From positions 3,296,001 to 3,360,000 of the forward strand of contig OZ252098.1 of the NCBI GenBank assembly GCA_965248355.1: a DNA stretch of 64,000 nt, given 5' to 3'. Position numbers and translations under genes: made by a program. How positions within the stretch are numbered: position 1 is the stretch's first letter; each line of letters begins with the position of its first letter. This document shows, piece after piece, positions 30,704 to 61,018 of this stretch. This stretch comes from Candidatus Latescibacterota bacterium. GTDB taxonomy: Bacteria; Latescibacterota; UBA2968; UBA8231. A model generated the notes under the pieces. The model had not been told where the DNA came from. It saw only the letters and a list, made by a program, of their open reading frames with translations, and did not search any database.

Positions 30704-31519
30704 CTACTCCACTGGCGGCGGAGGGTCCACCGGGGCGGCGAGCACGGTGAAGCCGTGACGGCGGAAGACCTCCGCCGCCTCTCTCGACCGCAGCCGATTC
30801 ACGAGGTGCCGCACGGCCGGGGAGTCGCGGCCGGCGACCACGGCCGCGGGATAGCGGATCGGCGCGTGCAGACTGTCCGCCAGCTCGGCCGCGACCCGCA
30901 CCCGCCGGCTGACGGCCGCGTCGGTGGCGTAGACGACGCCGGCCTCACACTCGCCCCGCTCGACGTAGAGGAGGGCGGCGCGCACGTCGGGGGCCGGCGC
31001 GAGACGGTGCTCCAGGGCCGGCCACCAGCCGAGCGCCCGCAGCGCCTGGCGGGCGTAGATCCCGGCCGGGACGTGGGCGGGATCGCCCATGGCCAGGCGC
31101 CCGCTCAAGGCCCCGGCCAGATCGAATCCGGGCGCCGGCTGAACCTCGAGGCCGCTCCCCGCCGGCGTGACGACCACCAGGCGGTTGGCGAGCAGGTCGA
31201 AGCGTGTCGCGGCGTCGATGCGCCCCCTTTCCTGCAGGTAGTCCATCCACTGCGGACTGGCGGACAGGTAGAGATCGACGGGGGCGCCGGCGTCGATCTG
31301 CCGCGCCAGGGCCGAGGAGCCGGCGAAGGAAAGCCGCAGCTGCGGGAAGCGGTGGCGCGGGAGGATCTCGGTGAGGACGCTGGTCAGGCTCGCGGCGGCG
31401 AAGAGGCCGAGGGACGTACCGCCCGGAGAGGACTCCTCCGCCCGCGGTCCGGCGGCGGTCAGGTGGAGAGTGGCGGCGACGAGGCAGAGGGCCGGCGGCG
31501 ACCGGCGCGGAACGGTCAC
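30704..31519 (-). CDS. modA: Molybdate ABC transporter substrate-binding protein
   Basis: Signal peptide, FAAASL, SSALARQI, VPAGIYA, VYATDA. Confidence 0.93.
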   Translation of the reverse strand: MTVPRRSPPALCLVAATLHLTAAGPRAEESSPGGTSLGLFAAASLTSVLTEILPRHRFPQLRLSFAGSSALARQIDAGAPVDLYLSASPQWMDYLQERGRIDAATRFDLLANRLVVVTPAGSGLEVQPAPGFDLAGALSGRLAMGDPAHVPAGIYARQALRALGWWPALEHRLAPAPDVRAALLYVERGECEAGVVYATDAAVSRRVRVAAELADSLHAPIRYPAAVVAGRDSPAVRHLVNRLRSREAAEVFRRHGFTVLAAPVDPPPPVE

Positions 31520-31622
31520 GGGTTCTCCGGGCGAGGGGATTCCACGGGCCCGGCAGAGATTGCGGCCCTCGACCGGAAGCGTCAATGGCCGGGGCCACCC
31601 GCCCGCCCTACCTTCCCGCCGC

Positions 31623-32693
31623 ATGGCACCCGGACCACTCGACTCCCTCGACCTCCTCACGCGGATGCTGCAGATCCCCTGCCCTTCCGGCCGCGAGGAG
31701 CGCATGGCGGCCTTCCTGGCAGGGGAGCTGACCGCCCTCGGCGGCGAGCCCCGCCAGGACGGCCAGGGCAATCTCTGGGTCGAAGTCGCCGGCCGCGAGC
31801 CCGGCCCCGGCGTGGCCATCGCCAGTCACACCGACGAGATCGCCATGGTCGTCACCGGGGTGGAGGCCGATGGCACGCTCCGCGTCCAACGCTCCGGCGG
31901 TCTCTACCCGTTCAAGCTCGGCGAGGGGCCGGTGGTCCTGGTTGGCGATGGCCGGGACGTGCCCGCCCACCTGAGCTTCGGCTCCGGCCACACCAGCGAC
32001 CCGGAGGATCCGATGGCCCGGTTCATCCAGGGCCGCCAGGGCATCACCTGGGAGCACTCCCGGCTGATCACGGGGCGGTCCCCGCGGGAGCTGGCCGACC
32101 TCGGGGTCCGGGTGGGGACCTGCGCCGTGCCGGCGGCCGCCCTCCGGGGCCCGCACGTCTTCGGCCCCGAGGAGGCCCCCCTCGTATCGGCCTGGATCTT
32201 CGACAACCGCGGCGGCAGCCTGACGCTGCTGCTGCTGTGGCAGCGGTTGCGCCGGTCCGGCTTCACGCCGAGGCGCACCCTGCACCTGTGCTTCCTCGTG
32301 CAGGAGGAGACGGGACTTCTCGGCGCCAAGGGCTGGGTGCGCCGCAACGAGGTGGAGAGCTTCATCGCCGTCGACTCCACGCCCATGCCGCGGGGCACCT
32401 CTCTCCAGCTCGACGGGAGACCCGCCGCCTGGTCCCGCGACAGCCGGGTCCACTTCCACCAGGGCCTGATCGCCGAGCTGGACGCGGCCGCCGTCCGCGC
32501 CGGCACCGGTCTGCAGTACGCCGTCTACTCGGCCGCCGCATCCGACGCCACCGGCGTGCTCGAGGCCGGCGGCGCCCCCCGCTGCGCCACCATCGGATAC
32601 CCGCGCGAGAACTCCCACGGGTACGAGGTCGTGCGCTGGTCGGTCTTCGACAACCTCGAGCGGACCCTCTTCGAGTACGTCTCGGCCCTCTGA
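31623..32693 (+). CDS. M42-family metallopeptidase
   Basis: SHTDE, FDNR, QEETG, IAVD and NSH metal-ligand motifs. Confidence 0.85.
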   Translation: MAPGPLDSLDLLTRMLQIPCPSGREERMAAFLAGELTALGGEPRQDGQGNLWVEVAGREPGPGVAIASHTDEIAMVVTGVEADGTLRVQRSGGLYPFKLGEGPVVLVGDGRDVPAHLSFGSGHTSDPEDPMARFIQGRQGITWEHSRLITGRSPRELADLGVRVGTCAVPAAALRGPHVFGPEEAPLVSAWIFDNRGGSLTLLLLWQRLRRSGFTPRRTLHLCFLVQEETGLLGAKGWVRRNEVESFIAVDSTPMPRGTSLQLDGRPAAWSRDSRVHFHQGLIAELDAAAVRAGTGLQYAVYSAAASDATGVLEAGGAPRCATIGYPRENSHGYEVVRWSVFDNLERTLFEYVSAL

Positions 32694-32703
32694 GGCCGCC
32701 GCC

Positions 32704-34068
32704 TTGGAGCCCACCGCTCTCGAGGGCCGCCGGCTGGCCCTGCTGGGTCTCGGCGTCGAGAACCGGGCCCTGGGCCGCTGGCTGGCCTCCCGGGGACTCG
32801 GCTTCTGCGTCTGCGACGCCGATCCCGGGCGCCGCCTCGAAGGGGAGCCGTGGAAGGAGGCGGTCCTGGAGTGGCGGCTGGGGCCGGGCTGCTTCGACCG
32901 CCTCGACGACTTCGACCTGCTCTTCCGCTCCCCCGGCATCCCGGTGCGGAGGCCGGAGCTGCAGCGGGCGCGGCGCCTCGGCGGCACCACGCTCAGCAGC
33001 CAGACGGCGCTCTTCCTCGAGCGCTGCCCGGCGCCGGTGATCGGCGTCACCGGGACCAAGGGGAAGGGGACCACGGCCTCCCTCCTGGACTCGATCCTGC
33101 GTCGGACGCCCGGCGTGACCCCCCGCCTGGGGGGCAACATCGGGACTCCGCCCGTCGGTTTCCTCGACGACCTGACCGCCACCGACGTGGTCGTGCTGGA
33201 GCTGTCCAGCTTCCAGTTGCAGGACCTGGATCGAAGCCCTCGCGGGGCCGTGGTCCTCCCCGTGACCCGCGACCACCTCGACTACCACGCCGACCGCCGG
33301 GAGTACGTCGAGGCCAAGGCCGCGATCTGCGCCCACCAGGCCGGCGGCGACTGGGTCGTGTCCAGCGCCGACGACGCCATCGCCGCCGAGCTGGCCTCCA
33401 GGAGCCGGGGACGGGGCCTGGGGTTCCGGGCCGGAGCCCCCCTGGAGGGCGACGGCTGCTGGAGTGAAGGCGGCGAGATCCGCTGGCGGGAGGGTGGCCG
33501 TGCCGAGAAGCTGGCCTCGGTGAGCGATCTCCGACTCCGGGGGCTGCACAACCTTGCAAACGCCTGCGCCGCCGCCGCGGCCTCCCGTCTGTGCGGCGCT
33601 CCCGCGGCTGCCATCGGGCAGGGTCTGAGCGCCTTCGAGGGGCTCCCGCACCGTCTCGAGGAGGTGCGCGAGCGGGGCGGAGTGCTGTTCGTCAACGACT
33701 CACTGGCGACGACGCCGGAGGCGGCGGCGGCGGGCCTGGAGGCCTTCGCCGGCCGCCCGGTGGTCCTCATCGCCGGCGGCGCCTCCAAGGGCGCCTGCTT
33801 CCATGGGCTCGGAGCCGGCATCGCCCGCTCGGCGGCGGCCCTCGTGACGCTGGGAGAGGAGGGCCCCGCCATCGCCGCCGCCGCGCGCGCCGGCGGATTC
33901 GGCGGACCGGTCGCCGGGGACTGCGCGGACATGGCAGCGGCGGTGCAGCGCGCCACGGAGCTGGCGGCGGCCGGCGGCGTCGTGCTGCTGTCGCCGGGGT
34001 GCGCCAGCTTCGGGATGTTCACGGACTACGCGGCCAGGGGAGAAGCCTTCCGATCCGCCGTCGGTTGA
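32704..34068 (+). CDS. murD: UDP-N-acetylmuramoyl-L-alanine--D-glutamate ligase
   Basis: SPGI, TGTKGKGTT, GNIG, ELSSFQL, DHLDYH, LPHRLE, NDSLAT, LSPGCASF. Confidence 0.95.
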   Translation: MEPTALEGRRLALLGLGVENRALGRWLASRGLGFCVCDADPGRRLEGEPWKEAVLEWRLGPGCFDRLDDFDLLFRSPGIPVRRPELQRARRLGGTTLSSQTALFLERCPAPVIGVTGTKGKGTTASLLDSILRRTPGVTPRLGGNIGTPPVGFLDDLTATDVVVLELSSFQLQDLDRSPRGAVVLPVTRDHLDYHADRREYVEAKAAICAHQAGGDWVVSSADDAIAAELASRSRGRGLGFRAGAPLEGDGCWSEGGEIRWREGGRAEKLASVSDLRLRGLHNLANACAAAAASRLCGAPAAAIGQGLSAFEGLPHRLEEVRERGGVLFVNDSLATTPEAAAAGLEAFAGRPVVLIAGGASKGACFHGLGAGIARSAAALVTLGEEGPAIAAAARAGGFGGPVAGDCADMAAAVQRATELAAAGGVVLLSPGCASFGMFTDYAARGEAFRSAVG

Positions 34069-34118
34069 TGCTCCGCCGTCCCCGACTCCCGCGAGGCCGG
34101 CACCGTTGATCTTTTCCC

Positions 34119-34148
34119 TTGACATTGTGCCGGGATCCCGGATAGGTT
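34119..34148 (+). promoter_or_regulatory. Sigma70-type promoter
   Basis: TTGACA (34119-34124), 18-nt spacer, TAGGTT (34143-34148). Confidence 0.7.
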
Positions 34149-34154
34149 GACCCG

Positions 34155-34573
34155 CGTTCCACGGCACTCATCAGCACTCATCGACAAGCACCTGAAGGAG
34201 CTTCCAGAAGCCGGATGATAGTCCGAATCCCACAAGACCTCCTGCGCCCGTCCAGGTCGACGGGCCGGCCCGCGTTTACCGGGACGACCGCCGCGGCCTC
34301 CGCCTCCGGCGACTTCCGGGGCGTATGGGGCCCGGCCGCAGGAGGGATGGGGTTCCACCGGCTCCACGGAAACGAATGCATCCCGATGACCGCCGCCGAC
34401 TCCATGAACGGCACGGTCATCAAGCCCCGTCCGGGGCTTGCAGCGGGAGGAGATCCCGGAGGTTGAATCGCTGAAGCGACAGCGACTCGAGCCGGAGGGA
34501 TCGGATCCCAACGGCTTACTCGAAGCCGGCTGCAGGCCCCCGCAAGGGGATCGCCTGCAGCCGGTTTTTTTTT
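34155..34573 (+). ncRNA. Candidate large structured non-coding RNA (about 420 nt), family not recognised
   Basis: Lies between a promoter and a terminator; nested helices over almost its whole length; no credible ORF. Confidence 0.65.
34526..34573 (+). terminator. Intrinsic terminator
   Basis: 12-bp stem CCGGCTGCAGGC/GCCTGCAGCCGG capped by CCCC-GCAA-GGGG, followed by T9. Confidence 0.9.
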
Positions 34574-34786
34574 GTTGCACCAGGGCGCCGGGCCTCGCGA
34601 TCGGTACGGTACGCGAGGCTCGCGCCGGGAACCCCGTCGACGGACGTGGGTTCGAGGGATCGGCGGCGGTGGCCGAAGCAACGGGCCCACTCACCGCCCG
34701 CCGGTTCCCCCCGCCTGGCGGGTCAACGGCCGCTGGAACAGGAGGCCAGCGTCGTCCCGCCCGAACTCGCGAGAGGAAGGAGACCG

Positions 34787-34969
34787 ATGCACAAGGTCCC
34801 GAGAGAGTGGCTCGAGAGAGCCGCCCGGGTCTACAACAGCAACGCCGAAGCCAGCAAGGCACTGGGCATCGCGGGGGGCACCTTCGGTCGCCTCTGCCGC
34901 CAGTACGGTATCGAGACTCCCTTTGCCCGCCAGCGCAACGCCCGCAGGGCGGCGCGGTCCCGGGCCTAG
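34787..34969 (+). CDS. Small (60 aa) HTH DNA-binding protein, RWP-RK/Fis-like
   Basis: Strong RBS GAGAGGAAGGAG; EASKALGIAGGTFGRLCRQYGI HTH; basic tail. Confidence 0.8.
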   Translation: MHKVPREWLERAARVYNSNAEASKALGIAGGTFGRLCRQYGIETPFARQRNARRAARSRA

Positions 34970-35127
34970 GGCAAGCACACGCCTCCGGCTGCGGCGGGAG
35001 AAGCCGGAGACGGCTGCCCCGGCAGCCACGGAATCCCTTTCACGGCGCCTGCCGGGCCGACGGCACCGGGCCGGCAGGCGCTGCTCCCGCACTCCCCCGT
35101 CCCCCGGCTGCGTACCTTTTCCGGACC

Positions 35128-37383
35128 ATGACGAGCCATCCTCCCCGTCTGATCGAGACCGCACCCCCCGGGGTCCAGGCCAGGATCCTGGCCGCCATGG
35201 GGGGCCAGGAAGCCCTCATACAGGTCCGGGCCGACATGGAGGCCGGGGGAAGGGACTACGGCCGGCGCTGGCTGGCCGCGTCCTCCGACCGCATCGTCGT
35301 CGCCGACGAGCCCTCGGCCAACGGCGCCCAGTCGATCCCCATGGCCGAGGTGACACGGGTGCGCACCGAGCCCCTCGTCGGCGGCGGGCGGCTCGAGATC
35401 GAGCGCCGTTCGGCCCCGACCGTGGCGATCGCCTACACCCAGTCCATGGGGGAGAAGTTCTCCGAGGCGGCCCGGGGGCTGGAGCAACTGCGCACCGGCG
35501 AGCCCTTCCTGGTCAATCCTCGCCTCGAGCGCCTGAGGTGCGAAAAGTGCTCGCGGCTGCTGCCGGAGCGGGACGGCGTCTGTCCCGCCTGTATCCGGAA
35601 GTGGTCCACCCTCAAGCGCATCGCCGGCTACATGTTCCCGTACCGGGGGAAGGCGGTGGTCCTGGCCATCGCCTCCCTGGTCACCGCGGGCGCCGAGCTG
35701 GTCCCGCCCCTGTTGATCATGCGTCTATGGGACGAGGTCCTGCTGCCGGCCATCAACGACGAGGACGGCGCCGCGGATCCGGAGTCCCTGCTGGGGCTGC
35801 TCGGCTTCCTGGTGCTGGCCATGGTGGGGGTCCGGGTGGTGAGCTGGGCCGCGGAATGGGTCCACGGATGGACCGCCGCCTGGCTCGGCGCCCGGGCGAC
35901 GGCCGACATCCGGGGCGAGCTCTACCGCCGGCTGGAGATGTTGTCGCTGCAGTTCTACGACCGGCGCAAGGTGGGGGCCCTCATGGCGCGGGTCACGCGC
36001 GACACGGGACGGCTCCAGGAGTTCCTCGTCGACGGGCTGCCCTACCTGATCGTCAACGCCCTCCTGATGGTCGGCATCCTGGGGTTCCTGTTCTGGATGA
36101 GCTGGGAGCTGACCCTCTACACGCTGATCCCGGTGCCTTTCATGGTCCTCTGGGGCGCCGTGTTCTGGAAGCGCATGCGCCGGTTCTTCCGGCGCTGGGG
36201 GGAGACCTGGTCGAACCTCACCGACCGCACCTCCGAAGCCCTGACCGGGATCCGCGTGGTCAAGGCCTTCGCCCAGGAGAGCCGCGAGATCGGCGCCTTC
36301 ACGCGCCTGAACCGCAAGATCACCCGGATCGGCGTGCGCACGAGCGTGAACCGCACCGTGTTCTTCGCCACCATCTCTCTCCTCACCAGCTTCGGCGTGG
36401 TCATCGTCTGGTTCTTCGGCGGACGGGAGGTGATCTCCGGCGAGCTGACCATGGGTACGCTGGTGGCCTTCTATTCCTACATCTGGATGGTCTACGGCCC
36501 GCTGGAGTGGTTCGGCCAGGTCAACTCCTGGATGTCGCGCGCCTTCGCCGGCGCCGATCGCGTCTTCGAGGTCATCGACACCGCCCCCGAGGCCTACGAC
36601 GACGCCGGGGCGGTGCGCATGCCGGAGATGGAGGGACGGATCCGGTTCACGGAGGTGACCTTCGGCTACGACAAGAGCAAGCCCGTCCTCAAGGGCATCG
36701 ATCTCGACGTGCGCCCCGGGGAGATGATCGGTCTCGTGGGGCGTTCCGGCGTCGGCAAGACGACGACGGTGAACCTCATCGCCCGGTTCTACGACGTCGA
36801 CCACGGCTCGATCGAGATCGACGGCGTCGACATCCGGCGCATCAACCTGCGCGACCTGCGCCGCCGGATCGGCATCGTCCTGCAGGAGCCGGTCCTGTTC
36901 TCGGGCACCATCGGCGAGAACATCGGCTATGGCAAGCCGGGGGCGAAGTTCGAGGAGATCCTGGCGGCGGCCAGGCTCGCCAACGCCCACAACTTCATCG
37001 TCGCCAAGCCCGACGGGTACGAGACCCAGGTGGGAGAGCAGGGCAACAACCTCTCCGGCGGCGAGCGCCAGCGGGTGGCCATCGCCCGGGCCATGCTGCA
37101 CGACCCGAAGATCCTGATCCTCGACGAGGCGACCTCGTCGGTGGACGTGGAGACGGAGAAGCAGATCCAGCAGGCCATCAACCGCATGGTGGAAGGCCGC
37201 ACGACCTTCGCCATCGCCCACCGGCTGTCGACCCTGAGGGACGCGGAGCGGCTCGTCGTCCTCGACGAGGGGCGGATCGTCGAGGTCGGCACCCACGAGG
37301 AGCTGATGAACCGGCGCGGCCGGTTCCACGACCTGGTGGAGATGCAGCAGGAAGCTTCCAGGATCATCGCGATCGCCGAGTGA
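35128..37383 (+). CDS. ABC exporter with N-terminal extra domain and Cys4 motif
   Basis: CEKC..CPAC before the TM domain; GRSGVGKT, LSGGERQR, LDEATS. Confidence 0.95.
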   Translation: MTSHPPRLIETAPPGVQARILAAMGGQEALIQVRADMEAGGRDYGRRWLAASSDRIVVADEPSANGAQSIPMAEVTRVRTEPLVGGGRLEIERRSAPTVAIAYTQSMGEKFSEAARGLEQLRTGEPFLVNPRLERLRCEKCSRLLPERDGVCPACIRKWSTLKRIAGYMFPYRGKAVVLAIASLVTAGAELVPPLLIMRLWDEVLLPAINDEDGAADPESLLGLLGFLVLAMVGVRVVSWAAEWVHGWTAAWLGARATADIRGELYRRLEMLSLQFYDRRKVGALMARVTRDTGRLQEFLVDGLPYLIVNALLMVGILGFLFWMSWELTLYTLIPVPFMVLWGAVFWKRMRRFFRRWGETWSNLTDRTSEALTGIRVVKAFAQESREIGAFTRLNRKITRIGVRTSVNRTVFFATISLLTSFGVVIVWFFGGREVISGELTMGTLVAFYSYIWMVYGPLEWFGQVNSWMSRAFAGADRVFEVIDTAPEAYDDAGAVRMPEMEGRIRFTEVTFGYDKSKPVLKGIDLDVRPGEMIGLVGRSGVGKTTTVNLIARFYDVDHGSIEIDGVDIRRINLRDLRRRIGIVLQEPVLFSGTIGENIGYGKPGAKFEEILAAARLANAHNFIVAKPDGYETQVGEQGNNLSGGERQRVAIARAMLHDPKILILDEATSSVDVETEKQIQQAINRMVEGRTTFAIAHRLSTLRDAERLVVLDEGRIVEVGTHEELMNRRGRFHDLVEMQQEASRIIAIAE

Positions 37384-39653
37384 CCGTGGAGAACGTGAAG
37401 ACGACGATGATGGAGGGAGACACGGGCGGACCCTCTCCCTTCCGGGAACCGGCGCCCGCCGCGGTGGACGAGCGCGTCCGCCTCGCCACCGGGAGGGGTG
37501 AGAGGATCTGGGTCCAGGTGGCCACGGACATGTCCGGTGGCGAGCTCTTCGAGGAGGGCTGGCTGGTGATCACCGACCGCCGGGTGCTCCTGGTGCATGG
37601 CAACGGCTCCGGACCCGCGGCGCCGGAGGTCGAGCAGGTGCCCCTCGGCGAGGTGCGCACGGCCCGCGTCGAGGCCCTGGTCGGCGGCGGGCGGCTGGAG
37701 GTGGAGCGCCGGGAGGGGCCGCCCGCCCACGTCTACTTCTCCAACTCCCTGGCCTCGAAGTTCGCCGAGGTCGCCGAAGGCCTCAAGCAGCTGGCCGAGG
37801 GGGAGACGCCGACCCTGGCCACCTCCGTCGACCGCACCCGCTGCGAGCGCTGCGGCCGGGTGCTGCCCGAGAAGGACGGCCTCTGTCCGGCCTGCGTGAA
37901 GAAGCTGGACACGATGAGGCGGCTGCTCCGCTACATGGCGCCCTACAAGGGGCGGGTGGCCCTGCTGTTGGCGATCCTCGTCCTCGAGACCGGGGTCGAT
38001 CTGCTGCCGCCCAAGATCACTCAGTACATCATCGACGACGTGCTCGTGCCGCAGGACAACTACGGCCTGCTGGTGCAGTACGCCCTGGCGCTGCTGGCCA
38101 TCAACCTCTTCGCCTGGGCCGCCTGGATCGTCCGCCGCTGGGTCGGCACCTGGGTCGGCTTCCGGGCCATCGAGGCGATGCGGGCCGACCTCTACCGGGC
38201 CCTGCAGTTCCTGCCCCTCCGGTTCTACGACAAGCGCAAGGTGGGGTCGCTGATCTCGCGCATGTCGAACGACTCCGACCTGGTGGAGATCTACCTGATC
38301 TTCGACATCCCCTACGTGGCCAACAACGCGCTGATGGTCCTCGGGATCCTCGGAATCCTGCTGTGGACCAGCTGGGAGCTGACCCTGTGGGTGATCCTGC
38401 CGATCCCGCCTATTCTGGCGGTCTCGACGGTGATCTGGAAACGCATGGAGTCGGACTGGCGGCGGTTCTCGGCCAAGTGGTCGCGCCTGTCGTCGCATCT
38501 GAACGAGTCGATCCGCGGCATCCGCGTGGTCAAGGCCTTCGCCCAGGAACGCCGCGAGGGAGAGCGCTTCGACCGCCGCAACACCGACCTGCGGGACGTG
38601 AGCATCACCGCCGAGCGCCGCTGGATCGTGTTCTGGATGATCACCAACTTCTTCATGAGTTCCGGCGTGTTCTTCGTCTGGTACTTCGGCGGACGCCAGG
38701 TGGTCTTCAAGGGGCTCTCCCCCGGCGAGCTGATGGCCTTCATCACCTACATATGGATGCTCTACCAGCCCCTCAAGTGGTTCGGAGACTTCTACGGTTT
38801 CATGATGCGCGCCTACGCCGGAGCCGAGCGCATCTTCGAGGTCGTCGACGCCAGACCCGAGCCCTTCGACGATCCCCGGGCCGAGCCGAGGCCGCACCTC
38901 GAAGGGCGCGTCCACCTGCGCGGCGCCACCTTCGGCTACGATCCCGGAAAGCCCGTGCTGCGCGAGGCCGACCTGGAGGTGGAGCCCGGCGAAATGATCG
39001 GCCTCGTGGGCAAGTCCGGCGCCGGCAAGTCGACCCTGATCCACCTCCTGTGCCGGTTCTACGACGTCACCCGGGGCCGCCTGGAGATCGACGGCGTCGA
39101 CATCCGCCGGCTGCGGCTGGAAGACCTGCGCTCCCAGATCGGACTGGTGGCCCAGCAGTCGTTCCTGTTCAACGGCACGGTGGCCGAGAACATCGCCTAC
39201 GGCAAGCCCGGGGCCTCCTTCGAGGAGGTCCTGCGCGCGGCGAGGGCCGCCAACGCCCACGAGTTCATCATCAAGCTGCCCGACGGCTACGACATGGAGG
39301 TGGGCGAGCAGGGCAACAAGCTCTCCGGCGGCGAGCGGCAGCGCATCGCCATCGCCCGGGCGATCCTGCACGACCCCAGGATCCTGATCCTCGACGAGGC
39401 GACCTCCTCCCTGGACACGCCCACGGAGAAGAAGATCCAGGAGGCGATCGCGCGGCTGGTGGAGGGACGCACCACCTTCGCCATCGCCCACCGGCTGTCG
39501 ACGCTGCGCTCCGCGGACCGGGTGGTCGTGCTCGACGCCGGACGCATCGTCGAGACCGGCACCCACGAGGAGCTGATGCAGCGCGAAGGCTACTTCCACA
39601 AGCTCGTGAAGATCCAGCAGGAGACCACGGCCGTCATGGCCGTGAGCGGATGA
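37380..39653 (+). CDS. ABC exporter with N-terminal extra domain and Cys4 motif (paralog)
   Basis: CERC..CPAC; GKSGAGKS, LSGGERQR; GTGA coupling to the upstream gene (start could be a few codons later). Confidence 0.95.
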   Translation: MTVENVKTTMMEGDTGGPSPFREPAPAAVDERVRLATGRGERIWVQVATDMSGGELFEEGWLVITDRRVLLVHGNGSGPAAPEVEQVPLGEVRTARVEALVGGGRLEVERREGPPAHVYFSNSLASKFAEVAEGLKQLAEGETPTLATSVDRTRCERCGRVLPEKDGLCPACVKKLDTMRRLLRYMAPYKGRVALLLAILVLETGVDLLPPKITQYIIDDVLVPQDNYGLLVQYALALLAINLFAWAAWIVRRWVGTWVGFRAIEAMRADLYRALQFLPLRFYDKRKVGSLISRMSNDSDLVEIYLIFDIPYVANNALMVLGILGILLWTSWELTLWVILPIPPILAVSTVIWKRMESDWRRFSAKWSRLSSHLNESIRGIRVVKAFAQERREGERFDRRNTDLRDVSITAERRWIVFWMITNFFMSSGVFFVWYFGGRQVVFKGLSPGELMAFITYIWMLYQPLKWFGDFYGFMMRAYAGAERIFEVVDARPEPFDDPRAEPRPHLEGRVHLRGATFGYDPGKPVLREADLEVEPGEMIGLVGKSGAGKSTLIHLLCRFYDVTRGRLEIDGVDIRRLRLEDLRSQIGLVAQQSFLFNGTVAENIAYGKPGASFEEVLRAARAANAHEFIIKLPDGYDMEVGEQGNKLSGGERQRIAIARAILHDPRILILDEATSSLDTPTEKKIQEAIARLVEGRTTFAIAHRLSTLRSADRVVVLDAGRIVETGTHEELMQREGYFHKLVKIQQETTAVMAVSG

Positions 39654-53116: not shown

Positions 53117-53233
53117 CTCGCCTCTCCTGGTTGGACGGCCCAAAGATAACCGCCGGCGGGCGGCCCCGTCATCGGCGAGTTGCCCCGCACGCTCACCGGC
53201 CATCCCCCGCTGTCGTGAGATGGCGCGGGGGCC

Positions 53234-55384
53234 CTATGGGGCCGTCGAGAGCCGCTCTATCCCCCCGCCGCAATTGACCAGGTTGGTGTTCGTCACATCG
53301 AGGGTGCTCGCTTCGTAGGCCTGGACGCAACGGAGCCCGTCCTGGATCGTGGCGCCGGAAAGGTCGGCATGGCCCGTCCGGGCCACGCGGATGCCGTACC
53401 AGCTGCCGGGGGAAGCGTCCGACTCAGCCGATGAGCGAAAGGTGATGTCCCCCGCTCCGGCGTCGAGAGCACCCTCGACGATGAGTTCGGAACGGAGGTC
53501 GTCCTCGCCGCCCCGGGTCTCATCCCCAGGGGCGAAGGTCACCGTGCTTCCCGCGGGAAGGGTCAGCTTCATCCCCGGTGGAATCGTTACATCGCCCGTC
53601 ACCGTAACGTGATCATCCCAGGGTTCAATCCGGAACAGCTTGCCCTCCCCGGGAGCAAAGGAGGCGGCAAAGGAAGGAGAAGCGCCATGGCCGGTGAGTT
53701 CGATCTCCTTGCCATAGAGCTCCCTCACGAGGTACGAGTAGGCCGGCCCACTCAGACGAGATGCCTTCAGGTGGATGGTCACTCTCCGCAGATCGGGAGG
53801 CCTGGAGGGCTGGCAGCGGCGGTTGACCACCATCAGGTACCGGGTTCCGTCCCTGTGGGTGAAGGTGCCCAGATGGTAGTCCGACGTATCGGAGAGGGCC
53901 TGGACAAAGGAGGCCGGAGCCCGGCCGGGGAAGACGGCGTCCGAAGTCAGGCCCAACAGGGTATCGTCGTGTTCCTGCAACAACCCGTTGAGGGCTTGAA
54001 CTTCGGACCATTTGGGGGTGACTCTGTAGTATCCGTCCACCAGGCCTTGCAGGTCAGGCCTGCCATCGTCGTTGACATGGCTGGAGTACATGAAGTAGTA
54101 GATGCCCGTCACACCGTGGACCAGGGCCAGATGGACCTGAACCCGGATCTCCTCCGGCGACGGGTCCCGCAAGCCCTGCCGCCAGCCATGGGCCTGAATA
54201 AGGCCCCAAAGGGGTATCCCCGCCCCCATCGCCACCTCCCGGGCGCGACCATACCATGTGACGTAACTGTCGAGGGCACCTCGCAGGCCAGTCTCATACC
54301 CTTCTTCACCGTGCCTCGGCACGGAGAACCCTATGGGGTAGAGGTCAACCAGGAACTCCGAAGGTGAGACGGTGTCCACGAAGTGGCGCATGTATTCCTT
54401 GAGCGTCTGGTTGAAGGCCACAACGCCCGACTTGCCGGTCTGCGCCTTGATGAATCTGTTCACGTAGGCTACGCTCTCGTCCTTTTCCGTCCACCGAGGC
54501 TCGTCGTCCACGTAGAACCGCCACGGCGGATCCACCGTGATGCCGTCGTAGGCGGCCAGATCCGCCTCGATCTGCCGGTCATGGTCTCCCGCGAAGAGTC
54601 TGTGGCCATAGTCGTCGTGGGCCCTGATCTGATCCACCCACAGATCGGCCGCTCCGGTCCAGTCGATCTGGTACCGAACGAGATTCCTCCCCGCAGGTAC
54701 CGCATACCGGATCACGAAGTCCTGATAGGCGTCAGAAGCATGGAATTGCAGCTTCCGCACGCTCCGGGTGCGCAACACGGCGCCATCGGAATGGCGGAGT
54801 ATCCTGAGGGTGGCGATCCTGTCGCTGCCGGTATTGTCGTCCGTCTTCAGACGGAAGACATGTATCCCATAGCGCGCCCGGTTCGCCACGACCTGCCCTC
54901 TGCTGTTCAGTCTCTGCTCCACATAGCGCAGGAAGATGCCGGACCCCTCTGTAGTGGGGGTGTCCAGAATGACTCCGGGGCTGTGTGCGGCCGTATTCGC
55001 ATGCCACGCATCTCCGTCCCGCACTCCCACAGGATGGACGAAGACCTCAGCATCCTCCGCCTCCAGGACCTTGCTCCAATAGCGGCGGCTCTCCGAGCGC
55101 CACCCTGGAGGAACGTTCCAGCTGTACAACTGGACTCTCAGTCCTCGCTGGTGCGCCAGATCCATGAAGACGCCATTGACGGAAGGGTCATTCCTGGCTT
55201 CGATGGCGGAGTGAATCGTGTTGAAGTTTGCTTCGACTACCTGGTCGAGCCGCGCCGCGAACTGGCTCGACTGGTTGTTGAACAGCCCCGGGAACCACGT
55301 CCCGACAGGAAACTCCTGCCCAAGGCTCATCCCCGGGCCAAGAAGCAGGAGGGCGGAAGAGCGCAGAGCCCAGAGGGCGCTCAT
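53234..55384 (-). CDS. Secreted protein with putative glycoside-hydrolase-like domain and C-terminal beta-helix-like segment
   Basis: Signal-like N-terminus; FYVDDEP, DLYP, WGLIQAH, PSPEEIR..LALVHGVTGIYYF; WYGIRV tail. Confidence 0.75.
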   Translation of the reverse strand: MSALWALRSSALLLLGPGMSLGQEFPVGTWFPGLFNNQSSQFAARLDQVVEANFNTIHSAIEARNDPSVNGVFMDLAHQRGLRVQLYSWNVPPGWRSESRRYWSKVLEAEDAEVFVHPVGVRDGDAWHANTAAHSPGVILDTPTTEGSGIFLRYVEQRLNSRGQVVANRARYGIHVFRLKTDDNTGSDRIATLRILRHSDGAVLRTRSVRKLQFHASDAYQDFVIRYAVPAGRNLVRYQIDWTGAADLWVDQIRAHDDYGHRLFAGDHDRQIEADLAAYDGITVDPPWRFYVDDEPRWTEKDESVAYVNRFIKAQTGKSGVVAFNQTLKEYMRHFVDTVSPSEFLVDLYPIGFSVPRHGEEGYETGLRGALDSYVTWYGRAREVAMGAGIPLWGLIQAHGWRQGLRDPSPEEIRVQVHLALVHGVTGIYYFMYSSHVNDDGRPDLQGLVDGYYRVTPKWSEVQALNGLLQEHDDTLLGLTSDAVFPGRAPASFVQALSDTSDYHLGTFTHRDGTRYLMVVNRRCQPSRPPDLRRVTIHLKASRLSGPAYSYLVRELYGKEIELTGHGASPSFAASFAPGEGKLFRIEPWDDHVTVTGDVTIPPGMKLTLPAGSTVTFAPGDETRGGEDDLRSELIVEGALDAGAGDITFRSSAESDASPGSWYGIRVARTGHADLSGATIQDGLRCVQAYEASTLDVTNTNLVNCGGGIERLSTAP

Positions 55385-56130
55385 TCCAATACTCCATTCA
55401 ATTGATCGTTCTTGATCCGTCCCCAGGCCGCGGGTTTGACCATGGTCGTCATCTGCCCTCCCATGGGGCCCCATGGGACATCGGCATAGCTCGTCCCGTC
55501 CGGCAGATAGTCATGGGAGCCGTCCTGGCTCGTCCTGGCCGTCCACTTGAAGTACCAGTATCCCCTCTCTTCGTCTTCCAGGGCGCTCCCCGGGTTTCCA
55601 AGCGCCGGCCACTGGACGGCTCCTTCCAGCCATTGACCCGAGAGGGCAACCTCCACCTCGGGAATGTCCTCTCCTTCGGTGACGACCCACTGATCGCCAT
55701 CGAGACGACGGTGAATCTCCTTGGTGAGCCCTCCGTCCCGTCCTGCGATTTCGATCCGGTACTCCGGCAGGAAGTGAACCCAGGGAGGCTGCGCCTCGCC
55801 CAGGGTCGTATCGGCCGAGACATCGAAGAACAGCTCCACCGAGGTCCGGGTGGAACCCTGAAAGGGAGCCTCCAGGAACCTGAAGATGAACGCGAACAGG
55901 GCCTGATCCTCGAAGGTGCCCAGTCCATAGCCGTAGGTTATGATGTCTATGGTGCTGTTGGAATCGGGAGCGACGTCGAAGAACTCATCTCCCTCGCCGG
56001 GACCGCCGCCGCCCCAGTCCCGCCAATCTCCATCGACCACGAATGCCGACCTGTCCTGCGCAAGGGCCCCGTTCGCCCCGAATCCGAGGGCGCAGGCCAG
56101 ACCGACGAGCGTTCTCCACACGACTTGCAT
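55381..56130 (-). CDS. Secreted hypothetical protein with C-terminal WGxIK motif
   Basis: AAAGGA RBS, signal peptide ending ALA-Q, VDGDWRDW, C-terminal VKPAAWGRIK. Confidence 0.75.
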   Translation of the reverse strand: MQVVWRTLVGLACALGFGANGALAQDRSAFVVDGDWRDWGGGGPGEGDEFFDVAPDSNSTIDIITYGYGLGTFEDQALFAFIFRFLEAPFQGSTRTSVELFFDVSADTTLGEAQPPWVHFLPEYRIEIAGRDGGLTKEIHRRLDGDQWVVTEGEDIPEVEVALSGQWLEGAVQWPALGNPGSALEDEERGYWYFKWTARTSQDGSHDYLPDGTSYADVPWGPMGGQMTTMVKPAAWGRIKNDQLNGVLE

Positions 56131-56165
56131 GGCGGGATTCCTTTCAGGCATCCAGGAAGTGCGGC

Positions 56166-57762
56166 CTACTTGAGGTACATCAGTCTCCGGGTCTGCGCAC
56201 CCCCGGGGTAGTCCAGGCGCGCGAGATAGATCCCCGCGGCCACCGCAAGCCCCCGTCGGTCCCGGCCGTCCCAGGAGACCTCGTAGAGGCCGGCGGCCTG
56301 GACTTCGTCCACCAGCGTACGGACCTGCTGGCCCATGAGATTGTAGATCTCCAGCCGCACCGGACCGGGGCCGGCCAGGCGGTAGGCGATCCGGGTACCG
56401 CCGTTGAAGGGGTTCGGCTGGTTGGGATACAGCTCGTTGTCGGCCCGTTCGTCCGGCGCCGCCGCCTTCGCCGCCGATTCTGGTCCGACCGCCACCGTCC
56501 GCTCATCGCCGCCCAGGGTCAGATTCACGGACTGGCGTATGCCGCGGTTGAGAGGAATGCTGTGCCATCGGCCCACCACCTGGCCGTCGGCCCCGCGGGC
56601 CCGGGCCTGATACAGACCGCTGTGGCCGGGGAACAGGGTCAGCTCCAGCCGTCCGGCCGCGTCGGTCCTGGCGGTCCAGGCGTAGTGGGGGCGGCGACCG
56701 GAGATGCTGCGGGAAAACTCGACGGTCAGACCCTCGACCCGGCCTCCTGTGACCGTGGCCTCCATCTTCATGCGGGATGAAATATCCCACAACAGAACCG
56801 TGTAGTGTCCGCTTCTGCTGCCACTGGCCAGAGTCCTTCCATTGGGGGCCACCGCCACCGAGGAGACCCAGCTCCCGTGCCCCTCGAGGGTGAGGGTGGA
56901 TTCCAGCTGGCCCGTCTCCGCATTCCACAGCCGGATCCCGTCGTCATGGCCGCTGGCCAGGGTTCCTGCATCCACGAAGGCCAGGGACCAGACCCAACTC
57001 GCAAGTCCGTATTTCCCCGGCCCCTTCAAGGTTGACTCGAGCTCTCCGGTCTCCGAGTCCCACAGGCGGATCGTCCCGTCCCAGCCGCCGCTGGCCAGGG
57101 TCCTGCCGTCCGGCGAGAACGCCACCGACTCGATCCAACCCGAATGCCCGTGAAGGGCGGCCCTTTGTTGCCCGCTCGCCACATCCCACAACCGGATGGT
57201 GTAGTCCCCGCCGCCGCTGGCCAGCGTCTTGCCGTCCGGTGAGAACGCCACCGACTCGACCTCCCCCGTATGCCCGTAAAGGATGGTCTCGAGCTGGCCG
57301 GTGTCGACCGCCCACAGGCGGATCGTGTGGTCCCCCACTGCCGCTGGCCAGGGTCTCCCCATCCGGCGAGAACGCCGCCGACCGGACAAACCCCGCGTGC
57401 CCGTCGAGGACGGCCTTGAGCTGGCCGGTGTCGACCTCCCACAACCGGATGGCCCGGCGAGTGCCGGCGGCCAGGGTCCTGCCGTCCGGAGAGAACACCG
57501 CCGGCCGGACAAAGCTGGTATCGAGATGAGACTTCAAGCGGCCGGTGCGCGCATCGTGGATCCAGATTCCCACGCTGCTGGGCACCGCCAACCGGTCGCC
57601 ATGGGGCGAATACGCGATTTCACCAGACAGAACGACTTCACCAAAGCGTTCCTGGATGCCTTTGGGCAAGGGCAGGCGGGTATACTCCCGGGCGAGGCCT
57701 TCCTGAATCGTCACGCCGAGCAGCAGCAAGAAGCTGATCTTAAACACGTGGGGAGATTTCAT
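56166..57762 (-). pseudogene. WD40-repeat secreted protein with FlgD/T9SS-like C-terminal domain, frameshifted near 57334
   Basis: AFSPDG.TLASG...TIRLWD repeats continue across two frames; junction AGT GGGGG ACC AC has one extra G; C-terminal PNQPNPFN..EIYNLMGQ.VRTLV..WDGRD. Confidence 0.85.
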
Positions 57763-58076
57763 CCTAAGGACATACAATACATCATCATCAGTCGGTGCCC
57801 CCTCGCTTCCCTCCTGCAGCCGCTCCACGGCCCACGCTTTTCCCCCGCGCCGATATGTCCCGACCATCCCGAAATCGAGCCGAGGCTAGTCCTCAACACC
57901 CAACTGACTTGCGGACCTACCTCCCGACTTACTAGACTCCTGTGGTCCACACCAACGTAAACCCTCCCTCCCATGCACAAGTCGCCCCAGACCAAGCTAC
58001 TACCCCAGGCCGCGGTATGACGAAGAGACCGGGCACCGCCTCATCGACTTGGTGTCCCAACCGCCCCAAGCCGGCC

Positions 58077-58709
58077 ATGTCACCTGGCCTGATGAGCGCA
58101 GTGACGCCCGGTCCCCGAGTAGCCATCCCCAACGAGCGACTCATCCGCCAAGCGCTCCACGCCAAGTACCTCCGCAACCATCGTTTGCAGCCAGACACCC
58201 TCGTGATCGACGAGTTGGGGCTCGCTCATGCCCGGTCTCGAATCGATATCGCCGTGATCAATCGTTGCCTTCACGGCTACGAGATAAAGAGCGACCTCGA
58301 CACACTTCTGCGACTACCGCAACAACTCAGATTTTACTCCATGACCTGTGAGAAGATGACTTTGGTGGTAGGCGCCAAACACCTTCGGGCCGTCTCAAGT
58401 ATGCTGCCATCCTGGGGAGGTCTCGTGGCCGTCAAAATCGGCCCCCGTGGCGGCATCTCATTCGATCACATTCGCCCGGCGCGGGCGAACCCCAACTTCG
58501 ATTCATTCATGTTTCTCCATCTGCTCTGGCGTGGCGAAGCAGAAGAGGCCCTACGGGCACTGGGCGCGCCGCCCGCCTCGCCTCGTGCCACACGAAGAGA
58601 ACTCTATGCCGCTCTCGTTGAAGCCCTGAGCACGGCCGAGCTAACGACATTGGTCAAACGCGCTATGCGACAGCGCCAAGGTTGGCGAGCTCTTCCACCA
58701 CCAGCGTAA
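58077..58709 (+). CDS. sce7726-family protein (PD-(D/E)XK nuclease-like)
   Basis: IDELGL..SRIDIAVIN..LHGYEIKSDLDTLLRLPQQ; start may be 58092. Confidence 0.8.
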   Translation: MSPGLMSAVTPGPRVAIPNERLIRQALHAKYLRNHRLQPDTLVIDELGLAHARSRIDIAVINRCLHGYEIKSDLDTLLRLPQQLRFYSMTCEKMTLVVGAKHLRAVSSMLPSWGGLVAVKIGPRGGISFDHIRPARANPNFDSFMFLHLLWRGEAEEALRALGAPPASPRATRRELYAALVEALSTAELTTLVKRAMRQRQGWRALPPPA

Positions 58710-59754
58710 TGTGGTGATTGATGGCTACTTTCTTCCACTGGCCCAAATTGCTAGCACTTTGCCTCCTAGCGGCGCAATCACTGATATAGGCATCACCCCA
58801 CGAGTAATCCTGGCCGCGAAAGTCAAATCCCGCATCGAGCACAATCGCTTGGCAATGGGAGTGCATCTGATCCCGATTGTCGCGAAAAGAATCGCCTTTG
58901 CGCGTCCCCCACATATCCTCCCTGGTGTAGATTATTTTGCCCGCCGGCTTGACAATACGCATGTCTTTGGCCTCGAAATTCGGGTGGACTATCGTGTAAT
59001 CGCCATAGACCGGCCTCCGCATGCCGCCGGGCAGTTTCTTGAGCAGGGTTTGGTAGAAGAGCCAATCATGGCGCGGAATCGCATCTGTGCCCTTGGAAAT
59101 ATCCGCTAAAGTCTCGGGGATTGCAGTGCTGACAAGGACAACCTTACGGAAGGCCATGAGGTCGCCTAGCCGTGGCATGTAAGCGATAAGCGCCGTTGCG
59201 AATGAGTCGTAAGGCTCAAAATTCGGGGCCTTTAGATCGATGATCAGATCAATTCCCTTGAGCCCGACCTGCAAGTCCTTTGCCAGCGCAACGACCCTAG
59301 CTTCCGGGCCGTCCGCCATCAGATCTTCGAGGCGAACGAGGATCGCCGAGCCCTGTCTATCATGGGCGACCACGGTACTAACCGCCGCGATCGTAGCAGA
59401 ATCGGCAGCCAGGGGCAGGGCGGGAACCGCCTGCGCATCATGCAGCCTGAGGCCACTGAACACATAGTCGAAAACATGGCTGCCGTCATCCATACGTCCG
59501 TTGGCAATCGCCTCATTGAGCGCTATCCAAGCGGGACGCTGTCCCCACTTCTCTTGATAGCGCGTGATGAAGGGACGCACATGCTCATCGACTGTCCTTT
59601 TCGGCTCCTGCTGTTCGAAGTCGTACTCTACATCGGGGATCGTGATTAATGGCACAATCTGGTCTTTGACCGTTTGCCCGAGCCTCTTTAAGGCTTGGTA
59701 CTCGGCCTGCCGCCAGCGTAGCGCTGGAACATAAGTGTCATCACTCAACTGCAT
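58663..59754 (-). CDS. Beta-family protein (phage P4 beta/sce7725-like)
   Basis: YVPALRWRQAEYQAL, YGDYTIVHP, KIIYT, YSWGD, WKKVAINHHIT. Confidence 0.8.
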   Translation of the reverse strand: MQLSDDTYVPALRWRQAEYQALKRLGQTVKDQIVPLITIPDVEYDFEQQEPKRTVDEHVRPFITRYQEKWGQRPAWIALNEAIANGRMDDGSHVFDYVFSGLRLHDAQAVPALPLAADSATIAAVSTVVAHDRQGSAILVRLEDLMADGPEARVVALAKDLQVGLKGIDLIIDLKAPNFEPYDSFATALIAYMPRLGDLMAFRKVVLVSTAIPETLADISKGTDAIPRHDWLFYQTLLKKLPGGMRRPVYGDYTIVHPNFEAKDMRIVKPAGKIIYTREDMWGTRKGDSFRDNRDQMHSHCQAIVLDAGFDFRGQDYSWGDAYISDCAARRQSASNLGQWKKVAINHHITLVVEELANLGAVA

Positions 59755-61018
59755 CGTCCGGCTCTTCAAATTGAGGGCCCACCGTGCCTTGACCTACCAG
59801 ATCACTGAGAATGGTGTAGTCGGCGCGCTCTTTCCTGATCCGACCGGCTATGATGCTCGGATCGATCCCTAGCGTCCCGGCGTCGATTTGCACCCCTTCT
59901 TCCGAGAGCGCAAAACGTGACAGGCACTTATCCCAAGCATCGGGGGGTATCAGCGAGTCGAGGGCAAATCGGTCGGCGTCGGCCTCGACCTCGTCGGCCT
60001 CCCGAGTGCCCTCTTCGTCGAAGAAATCGTAGTGCAGGCCGTCAATAAGGTGCAGGAACACATGGCCAAGTTCGTGGAACAGCACAAACCAGAAATTATC
60101 CAGCCGATCATAGCGAAGTGTGAGCCCAATGACGGGCCGTCCAGTTTCACCCATCATAGCTGCCCCATCGAGATAGGTACCTGGCAGATGCTTTTCCGTG
60201 ATTAGAACGATGCCCTTTTTGGCCAGGAGATGACGCGCGCGACGCGGCCCGTCCTCGCGACGGGTCAGAGCTACCAACTTTCCAATCCAGCGATCGTCGA
60301 GTTCGAATTCAGGGATCTCGTGTCGCCTGATGGCCTTGCGCGCCCGATCCAGTACTCGTGCTTGCCAAGCGAGGAGGGCGTATTCGTTGGGGACGGTGCC
60401 GCTATGCATCTTCTTCCGATGGAATGCTGTCGCAAACTGCGGTCCAGCTGCGGTGAGGAAATATTCTCGCACTTTCTTGATCGGATCACCGCCACGCGGC
60501 ACCGTAAACCACTTCCGTTTGATCATGTCTTTGAAGGGAAACTGACGCCAGACCACGTCATCGACAGTTTTCCAAAAGAACACAGAACCGCGCATTTCTT
60601 GATCGGTTTCGAATAGCTCTTCGATGTGGACGCCGAGTAGGCGCGAGACGTCGATCAACTTCGCGAGGCTGGCACCCATATAGTCGGATGCCTCGTAGCG
60701 TTGGATCTGTTGCGGTTTGAGACTGAGTGCTTGCGCAAGATCGGTCTGGCTCATGCCAGAGGCGATGCGGGCCTGAATCAGGATCGAGGGCAAGCTCTCT
60801 AGCGCGAATGATTTAGCGAAGGTAATCTGTCCCGCCTTAAGTAAATCATAGTGGGCAAGCTCGGCTTCGATCTCTTCGATTTGGCTTTTGAGCGCATCAG
60901 TCTCGGCGATTTTCAGCCATTCCTGATCGGTCTCTCGCATTTGGGCGACACTGAGCGCCTCCTTCAGTTTGGTGAGCTCGCCGTTTGAGATGCGGTACTG
61001 CTTGTCGCTATAGATCAT
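59741..61018 (-). CDS. XRE HTH + ImmA/IrrE-type zinc metallopeptidase fusion (HigA-like antitoxin/regulator)
   Basis: ARIASGMSQTDLA..QQIQRYE HTH; LDGAA, LTLRYDRLDNFWF, HELGH (HExxH), EADADRFA. Confidence 0.9.
   Translation of the reverse strand: MIYSDKQYRISNGELTKLKEALSVAQMRETDQEWLKIAETDALKSQIEEIEAELAHYDLLKAGQITFAKSFALESLPSILIQARIASGMSQTDLAQALSLKPQQIQRYEASDYMGASLAKLIDVSRLLGVHIEELFETDQEMRGSVFFWKTVDDVVWRQFPFKDMIKRKWFTVPRGGDPIKKVREYFLTAAGPQFATAFHRKKMHSGTVPNEYALLAWQARVLDRARKAIRRHEIPEFELDDRWIGKLVALTRREDGPRRARHLLAKKGIVLITEKHLPGTYLDGAAMMGETGRPVIGLTLRYDRLDNFWFVLFHELGHVFLHLIDGLHYDFFDEEGTREADEVEADADRFALDSLIPPDAWDKCLSRFALSEEGVQIDAGTLGIDPSIIAGRIRKERADYTILSDLVGQGTVGPQFEEPDDAVE

Follow-up and report, generated by a model that had tools for sequence, protein, structure and literature searches.

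We analysed a 64,000-nt stretch of DNA from a Candidatus Latescibacterota bacterium (assembly GCA_965248355.1, contig OZ252098.1, positions 3,296,001 to 3,360,000), hereafter the window, in which a gap of 720 nt between murD and a gene for a small helix-turn-helix (HTH) protein houses a structured unit. The gap lacks the coding signal given by the GC content of third codon positions (GC3), and an original prediction made from the letters had taken the unit for a novel large non-coding RNA (ncRNA) transcribed on its own. It contains an open reading frame (ORF) of 83 codons, here ORF83, with the HTH gene and two ATP-binding cassette (ABC) exporter genes downstream of it in the same orientation (Table 1). 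We tentatively favour the view that the interval is the 5' leader of an operon of the HTH and ABC exporter genes and would work as a translated transcription attenuator.

Table 1. Features of the interval and of the genes that flank it (window coordinates)
Feature	Position	Strand	Remarks
murD	32704-34068		upstream of the gap; TIGR01087 equivalog, 341.5 bits against a cut-off of 212 bits
Promoter-like site	34119-34148	+	TTGACA 34119-34124, 18-nt spacer, TAGGTT 34143-34148; read by eye
5' leader	34155-34214	+	tandem GCACTCATC repeat at 34164-72 and 34174-82; Shine-Dalgarno-like AAGGAG 34195-34200
ORF83 (P0004), 83 codons	34215-34466	+	frame, start and stop kept in 6 further protein clusters
Branched rod, 155 nt	34209-34363	+	basal helices enclose three inner hairpins; base buries the ATG of ORF83
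Hairpin GAUGACCG/CGGUCAUC	34385-34421	+	inner GCCG/CGGC; 3-nt indel of the family lies in the loop
Hairpin AAGCCCC/GGGGCUU	34422-34439	+	proposed anti-antiterminator, segments 1:2
Segment 2, GGGGCUUGCAGC, codons 73-77	34433-34444	+	12-bp partner of 34529-34540; proposed antiterminator arm
Two hairpins between stop codon and terminator	34468-34517	+	34468-73/34480-85; 34489-94/34512-17 with inner GGGAU/AUCCC
Intrinsic terminator	34522-34573	+	16-bp outer stem, 4-bp inner stem, then U9 at 34565-73
Spacer from terminator to HTH gene, 213 nt	34574-34786	+	moderate structure (z -2.40; equalled by 3 of 200 shuffles)
Small HTH ORF, 60 aa	34787-34969	+	weak helix-turn-helix signal; GGAAGGAG 5 nt upstream
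Two adjoining fused permease/ATPase ABC exporter genes	35128-37383 and about 37407-39653	+	ABC_membrane + ABC_tran

A promoter-like site and a strong terminator bracket a tightly folded unit

Both boundary signals of the original prediction, a TTGACA-18-TAGGTT promoter and a terminator ending in T9, are present as they had been read. A consensus scan of 33500-35500 called 0 promoter-like sites, because TAGGTT agrees with TATAAT at just 3 of 6 positions, and the promoter is a plausible reading of the letters rather than a tool call; the GC content falls to 0.63 at this site, compared to 0.72-0.81 in its flanks. Transcription would start near 34155. The terminator, with 34522-34537 paired to 34553-34568 around an inner CCCC/GGGG stem, folds at -39.7 kcal/mol, and was missed by the consensus scan because of the loop rule of that scan. 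Within the 5' leader, the Shine-Dalgarno-like AAGGAG lies 14 nt before the ATG at 34215, a longer spacing than the 5 nt of the neighbouring HTH gene.

Several short repeats were seen around the putative start. A perfect 12-bp palindrome, CCGGGATCCCGG (34130-34141), fills the promoter spacer, GCACTCATC is repeated directly with a period of 10 (34164-34182) near the transcript start, and GATCCCGG occurs again at 34452-59. The palindrome and the GCACTCATC/GATCCCGG repeats are candidate sites for a binding protein, such as the small HTH protein encoded downstream.

The unit is folded more strongly than its base composition predicts. Every nested helix listed in the original prediction appears in the minimum-free-energy (MFE) structure, which comprises 34209-14/34358-63, 34225-32/34348-55, 34238-45/34338-45 and 34246-52/34259-65 in the rod, and 34385-92/34414-21, 34422-28/34433-39, 34468-73/34480-85 and 34489-94/34512-17 in the 3' part. 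The whole unit (34155-34573) has a fold z-score of -6.00, with 0 of 100 shuffles as stable, and leaving off the terminator (34155-34520) still gave z -3.97 (0 of 100 shuffles). The rod (34205-34367; z -3.55) and the remainder up to the terminator (34368-34520; z -3.64) were each matched by 0 of 200 shuffles. Genomic windows of 366 nt (n = 30) had a mean z of -0.57 (sd 1.16, minimum -2.91), all 30 of them outdone by the unit, and windows of 200 nt (n = 40) had a mean of -0.15 (sd 1.35, minimum -4.2). Since shuffles and genomic windows are both outdone, the structure exceeds what the GC content yields, in line with the dense structure first proposed. The minus strand of 34155-34573 reached z -6.26, and being as stable as the plus strand it leaves the strand undecidable from folding.

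The fold belongs to none of the RNA families searched. Rfam 15 gave 0 matches at gathering score over the whole window, and relaxing the threshold to E up to 10 over 34000-34800 returned only 6 matches (E 1.8-9.8, 10.6-20.6 bits) to families with gathering scores of 40-80. ARAGORN found 0 transfer-messenger RNA (tmRNA) or tRNA genes in the window. The Rfam models include 6S RNA, riboswitches and large ncRNAs, as well as tmRNA, RNase P and the signal recognition particle RNA, whose marks the RNA had been said to lack. Two likenesses noticed by eye were dropped: GAUAGUCCG and CCGGCU as the P4 helix of RNase P, for which covariance models see nothing, and GGGGUUCCACCGGCUCCAC as a tmRNA 3' end, for which neither covariance models nor ARAGORN see anything. 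A blastn search in 'distant' mode with 34100-34800 against a plasmid collection gave no match.

The original prediction had also proposed to look for homologues downstream of murD, and this search came back empty. A MurD scan of genome contigs returned at least 601 matching stretches, of which the best 80 loci were kept, so that closer relatives were possibly missed; among the matches listed, the best MurD identities were 51% and 50%, in two metagenome-assembled genomes of Latescibacterota. Searching these best 80 loci, nhmmer with 34069-34786 found none at E up to 10, and tblastn with 7 members of the ORF83 family reached a best E of 0.21. Rfam gave no match on the loci L001 and L002.

ORF83 is kept in frame across a small protein family

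ORF83 recurs as a protein. In a phmmer search of 1.84 billion representatives of all lengths, one true relative was found, of 83 aa, aligned end to end at E 1.1e-14. A first profile search placed 4 of 100 candidates in the family (E up to 0.01), and a second placed 7 of 6343 (E up to 0.1), corresponding to seven clusters including that of the window itself. All seven are 82-84 aa long, with the same start Met and a C-terminal AAGGDPGG followed by the stop, and the only indels, a 2-codon (6-nt) deletion and a 1-codon (3-nt) insertion, are in frame. Truncated, fused or other-frame forms were absent from the protein searches, low-complexity matches aside. Of the 32 invariant alignment columns, 24 fall within residues 43-83; they include Met, Phe, His, Lys and Asp, with codons of low degeneracy, and the block GGMGFHRLHG is invariant. 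Gene callers predicted the ORF on every contig where the family occurs. The observed amino-acid identities would imply a nucleotide identity of 74-82% if the region were non-coding, a divergence over which chance would hardly leave the frame intact in all members, and the recurrence of the same start and stop with in-frame indels only argues that the frame is read.

Two further matches were treated as chance. One is P0008 (189 aa), an ORF of the protein collection whose three tandem 54-aa repeats each carry GGSGFHRLHGE, similar to the invariant GGMGFHRLHG block, and whose score was the sum over the 3 repeats; it looks like a translated 162-nt tandem DNA repeat. The other is an 11-aa match of the family members P0014-16 to the window at 4542-4574 on the minus strand, within the gene for a protein with a WCGPC motif.

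The codons of ORF83 set its frame apart both from the other frames and from the genes of the window. Its codon score of -0.136 per codon lies below all 17 reference genes (0.33-0.80), and its GC3 is 0.77 compared to 0.86-0.97 in genes. Against the other two frames (-0.87 and -0.82), its -0.14 stands out, a value reached by 0.5% of the ORFs in shuffled sequences; open frames as such are cheap here, with 1683 of 2000 shuffles containing an ORF of at least 60 aa. Rare codons make up 9 of 83, compared to 2.2% in the 17 genes, and none of 98 equally long gene blocks held 9 or more. Four of the nine fall in codons 2-7, where ATA, CGA, CCA and CAA occupy positions 2, 4, 6 and 7, confirming the non-host codons that had been remarked on near the start of the ORF.

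The peptide itself looks unconstrained. Comparing the window ORF83 to three homologues, we found mean BLOSUM62 scores at mismatches of -0.56, -1.13 and -1.17, compared to -0.88, -0.82 and -0.79 in a neutral simulation, and two real window proteins at 51% identity scored -0.41 and +0.04, with -0.85 as the lowest of 27 blocks of 83 residues. Judged by these scores, the replacements look as radical as random mutation. AlphaFold2, run on the first four-sequence alignment, gave a predicted local distance difference test score (pLDDT) of 44.9, a predicted template-modelling score of 0.11 and essentially no secondary structure, and recognition by a protein language model was low (1841 and 1298 versus 2300), in the range of shuffled sequences; a protein atlas yielded no helpful lead either. 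Pfam, NCBIfam, PADLOC and PHROGs held no family matching ORF83, mobile-element, phage and defence families matched neither ORF83 nor the HTH ORF, and a profile search of the PDB with ORF83 returned nothing but a designed protein, matched twice and weakly (E 0.0013 and 0.074). Protein-level conservation of 34215-34466 had been named beforehand as the outcome that would speak against a non-coding RNA, and the result is divided: the frame recurs in six further clusters, and the replacements look neutral, no fold is predicted and conservation follows the predicted stems.

Conservation follows the predicted stems, and one helix could compete with the terminator

Conservation of the family tracks the predicted RNA structure. 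When each predicted pair was checked against all codons that could encode the six homologues (back-translation), 40 of 467 pair cells (8.6%) were forced to break, compared to 13.2 +/- 2.6% for random canonical pairs (p 0.044); this test is weak, as slid controls (6.8-12.9%) overlap the observed value. The inner rod (34266-34336) is clearly not kept, with many forced mismatches in the homologues, and in the hairpin 34422-34439 the pair 34423-34438 turns A/C in all six. Two compensatory changes are forced by the code: 34251-34260 goes from U-A to C-G, and 34300-34327 from C-G via U-G to U-A. Invariant codons carry 2.34 paired bases of 3, compared to 1.80 for the others (p 0.023), and both indels of the family fall in predicted hairpin loops, with 32.5% of the ORF bases unpaired. 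Because the replacements look neutral, no fold is predicted and conservation tracks the predicted stems, the alignments argue that constraint at the RNA level is real.

One segment of the ORF, within its last conserved codons, has two predicted partners. In the full-length MFE structure, the first 7 bases of GGGGCUUGCAGC (34433-44) close a hairpin with 34422-28. All 12 bases can instead pair with 34529-40 in the 5' arm of the terminator, as a duplex of -32.1 kcal/mol compared to -33.4 kcal/mol for the duplex of the terminator arms themselves. When the RNA was cut at 34546 (34155-34546), ahead of the 3' arm of the terminator, this helix appeared in both the MFE and the centroid structures, and the 3' arm of the rod (34345-54) paired with 34423-32. 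Among 2000 shuffled versions of the upstream RNA, 1.8% reached -32.1 kcal/mol. In the folding model, this set of helices has the anatomy of a transcription attenuator, and we take the switch as supporting, not decisive, because the chance controls are only moderate.

A candidate translated attenuator

We favour a translated leader because it covers an open frame with an indifferent peptide, rare codons and alternately pairing segments, and because the genes beyond the strong terminator run in the same direction, without an intervening promoter-like site (0 in a consensus scan of the spacer 34574-34786). The alternative helix and the co-directional ABC genes point to a leader acting in cis over an ncRNA acting in trans. 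Of the novel large ncRNA that had been proposed, the discrete, structured character and the lack of an Rfam family thus remain; the non-coding, independent part gives way to an 83-codon frame that is kept and probably read by ribosomes, in an RNA that probably acts in cis.

In the mechanism that we propose, RNA polymerase would start near 34155, and by default the transcript would fold into the rod (34209-34363), the hairpin 34422-28/34433-39 and the terminator, stopping at U9 to yield a discrete RNA of ~417 nt. Ribosomes would translate ORF83, and a ribosome lingering over segment 1 (34422-28) with segment 2 (34433-44) free would let segment 2 pair with 34529-40, so that the terminator would be blocked and polymerase would go on to transcribe the HTH gene and both ABC exporters. 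The peptide would be mostly irrelevant, conservation acting on the open frame and on the alternately pairing RNA segments, and perhaps also on the last ~40 residues, the stretch that the exit tunnel of the ribosome would hold. As the default product of such an attenuator would also be a ~417-nt RNA, a Northern band of that size would not separate this reading from a stand-alone RNA.

Attenuators of the trpL type have leader ORFs of ~14-30 codons in which the codon for the regulatory amino acid occurs in runs. In its predicted pairings, our unit would share with E. coli trpL the four-segment logic of 1:2, 2:3 and 3:4, with the leader stop near segment 2 and the terminator formed by 3:4, and it differs in that ORF83 is three to six times longer and has no run of a regulatory codon.

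The closest precedent is bmrB in the bmrBCD operon of Bacillus subtilis, where a leader ORF of 162 bp contains rare codons and, with its terminator/antiterminator, controls a heterodimeric ABC exporter via the translating ribosome (PMC4191407). The rare codons of bmrB are functional and its control depends on translation (PMC4191407); a similar dependence may hold for our unit. The likeness extends to a promoter a few tens of nt before a small ORF, to a terminator with predicted antiterminator and anti-antiterminator, to rare codons in a leader ORF whose peptide has no known function of its own, and to two co-directional ABC half-transporter genes downstream (PMC4191407). The 162-bp bmrB has the terminator inside the ORF, 119 bp before bmrC (PMC4191407), whereas here an ORF of 252 bp carries a 155-nt branched rod, the terminator lies 58 nt past the stop, and the HTH gene plus 213 nt intervene. 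Sequence similarity to bmrB was not found, no search aimed at it having been made.

Arrest peptides offer a second comparison. SecM, MifM, VemP and ApdA/ApdP are reported to lie upstream of protein-localisation genes, some with RAPP-type motifs, and they resemble ORF83 in preceding the regulated gene by a frame of tens to more than 100 codons, with a variable N-terminus and a strongly conserved C-terminus (PMC7897499, PMC10951233). Unlike these, ORF83 ends in AAGGDPGG-stop, lacks RAPP and precedes ABC exporter genes; an arrest of its ribosome could be suggested by analogy.

Several points weigh against a translated attenuator. The competing helix is only moderately unusual, as the terminator arm finds an equally good partner in 6.5% of 340 genomic stretches, and for the full sequence the terminator conformer wins at -91.3 versus -79.3 kcal/mol, leaving the alternative 12 kcal/mol weaker. 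The back-translated pair test, with its overlapping controls, lends little weight. Frame conservation is visible through called ORFs alone, so that relatives with a broken frame could escape detection, and the six homologues are known here as proteins alone, the leader context being read at the window locus only. L002, the nearest syntenic genome among the matches listed, has other genes where the leader would sit and no related leader. The terminator, 58 nt past the stop of ORF83 and 213 nt before the HTH gene, is placed unlike that of bmrB. Eighty-three codons is long for a leader peptide, the Shine-Dalgarno-like motif is 14 nt from an ATG that is itself buried in the rod, the required stall (P-site near codons 60-68) would fall in the most variable part of the peptide, and the rod has no role in a simple attenuator model.

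Alternative explanations

A broader possibility, which we regard as doubtful, is that the unit represents a new class of large bacterial RNA of ~0.4 kb from an uncultivated high-GC lineage, either an ncRNA acting in trans or a dual-function leader, in which the structure and not the peptide is selected. In the dual-function variant, covered by the same doubtful estimate, the ABC operon would be gated by the terminator, to which five mutually exclusive helices would couple both the rod, as a sensor of 155 nt, and a long frame indifferent to its sequence. Dual-function small RNAs such as SgrS/SgrT and RNAIII/hld carry ORFs of 26-43 codons that form a minor part of the RNA. Our unit resembles them in that RNA structure and reading frame both seem constrained, and it differs in that ORF83 takes up 60% of the transcript and a target-pairing region is not evident.

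More narrowly, the unit may be a stand-alone structured ncRNA of ~417 nt acting in trans, the fold alone being selected and ORF83 staying open through GC-richness and conservation; we think this unlikely. Much of the evidence would fit it: the fold (z -6.0, or -3.97 without the terminator) goes beyond 30 of 30 genomic windows, the unit lies between a promoter-like site of its own and a terminator of great strength, the replacements are random-like in a peptide with no predicted fold and low language-model recognition, the codon score is under that of all 17 genes, and open frames of at least 60 aa arise in 1683 of 2000 shuffles. Invariant codons in stems, indels in loops and two forced compensatory pairs point the same way. 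The behaviour of the frame does not: start, stop and frame are kept in 7 of 7 clusters at an implied nucleotide identity of 74-82%, all indels are multiples of 3 with no fragmentary or other-length matches, and the codon score is in the top 0.5% of shuffle ORFs and far over the other two frames. Further against it, 40 of 467 pair cells, many of them in the inner rod, are forced to break in the homologues, no Rfam family matches, and the single rod of 6S RNA is not found.

We judge it equally improbable that ORF83 is an ordinary small gene for a disordered, Gly/Ala/Pro-rich protein of 83 aa with the motifs GGMGFHRLH and C-terminal AAGGDPGG, the terminator simply ending the gene. The classic order of promoter-like site, AAGGAG, ATG, stop and terminator would suit such a gene, as would the in-frame recurrence in 7 of 7 clusters, the 32 invariant columns with their low-degeneracy codons, the frame-specific codon score and the calling of the ORF on every contig with the family. 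It is opposed by random-looking replacements, more radical than those of all 27 real-protein blocks, by a pLDDT of 44.9 with essentially no secondary structure, by the want of a family in Pfam, NCBIfam, PADLOC and PHROGs and only two weak matches among solved structures, and by a GC3 of 0.77 versus 0.86-0.97 with 9 of 83 codons rare. In addition, the invariant blocks coincide with stem arms, and the fold excess and the helix competing with the terminator would be left unexplained.

Less probable still is an untranslated cis-regulatory leader, riboswitch-like or protein-binding, in which the rod would be the sensor and its state would be relayed to the terminator through mutually exclusive helices (34225-32/34348-55, 34345-54/34423-32, 34422-28/34433-39, 34433-44/34529-40 and the terminator). 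It would account for the cut RNA, which swaps the outer helices of the rod and 34422-28/34433-39 for 34345-54/34423-32 and 34433-44/34529-40, for the four upstream segments all lying in conserved alignment blocks (RIP, MGF, KP and G-AA), and for a terminator followed by co-directional genes, but it leaves the kept frame, start and stop in 7 of 7 clusters unaccounted for, matches no known aptamer class, depends on an inner rod that is poorly kept in the back-translated test, and invokes alternately pairing G4/C4 runs that are easy to find at 70% GC.

6S RNA forms one long, unbranched rod, and the open bubble at its centre imitates an open promoter. The unit resembles 6S and Ms1 RNAs in being independently terminated, highly paired and a few hundred nt long with a long rod, but its rod is three-way branched, takes up 155 of ~417 nt and buries a conserved start codon, and an in-frame ORF is kept. 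With no Rfam match to either besides, even at E up to 10, we see no sign of a polymerase decoy of the 6S/Ms1 type.

Gene neighbourhood

The genes downstream of the unit are an exporter pair preceded by the small HTH ORF. The HTH ORF has a GC3 of 0.87 and a codon score of +0.197, and its matches to Pfam HTH_50 (E 0.0071) and RWP-RK (E 0.0046) are both below the cut-off. For both ABC exporters, the top NCBIfam model is NF052233, 'cyanophycin metabolism-associated ABC transporter', which spans both proteins end to end at 633 and 616 bits, below its cut-off of 880 bits; no cyanophycin gene was seen among the 37 scanned ORFs of the window. The exporter proteins (35128-39653) have an extra N-terminal domain of ~170-200 residues, with a CxxC...CxxC motif before the transmembrane domain. 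Between terminator and HTH gene, the spacer (34574-34786) contains a GGGUUCGAGGG stretch, which ARAGORN does not call as tRNA-like.

In L002, a Latescibacterota genome and one of the 80 loci, a homologue of the first exporter, ABC_A (57% identity over 275 aa), lies 3 kb after murD. A terminator-like hairpin (8405-8449 of that locus), GCGGGG...CCCCGC followed by T8, precedes this first exporter homologue, ending ~10 nt before its GTG, and no co-directional gene lies upstream of the hairpin. The same family of transporters may thus have a shorter attenuator of another kind in this genome.

Upstream, in 31371-34068, murD sits away from any division or cell-wall cluster and is preceded by a gene for an M42-family peptidase; no other mur or fts genes were seen among the scanned ORFs of the window. 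The rest of the window is ordinary chromosome, with dnaE, sugar-nucleotide enzymes, a resistance-nodulation-division (RND) efflux system and others. Just upstream of dnaE and on the same strand, a frame at 4395-4917 (minus strand) encodes the WCGPC product, which is thioredoxin- or TlpA-like by eye; it was missed by the GC3 filter used to pick ORFs. Two stretches of ~3 and ~4 kb (53204-56165 and 57513-61527) had zero ORFs passing the GC3-based filter.

Significance

Scans of GC-rich genomes for non-coding RNAs can draw a practical lesson from this locus, as one sequence can fold strongly and keep an open frame as well, and protein matches to a sense ORF should be checked before a unit is called non-coding. 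A structured leader may also be listed by protein databases under the guise of a conserved 'hypothetical protein' family. If the unit is an ncRNA, it would found a new family of large structured RNA, and if it belongs to a new class of RNA more broadly, the 82-84-aa 'protein family' in the databases would be the shadow of an RNA. Should the translated leader that we favour be correct, it would be a translated attenuator of unusual length, governing a pair of ABC exporters in a lineage that is uncultivated and poorly known, and control of the bmrB type would extend outside the Firmicutes.

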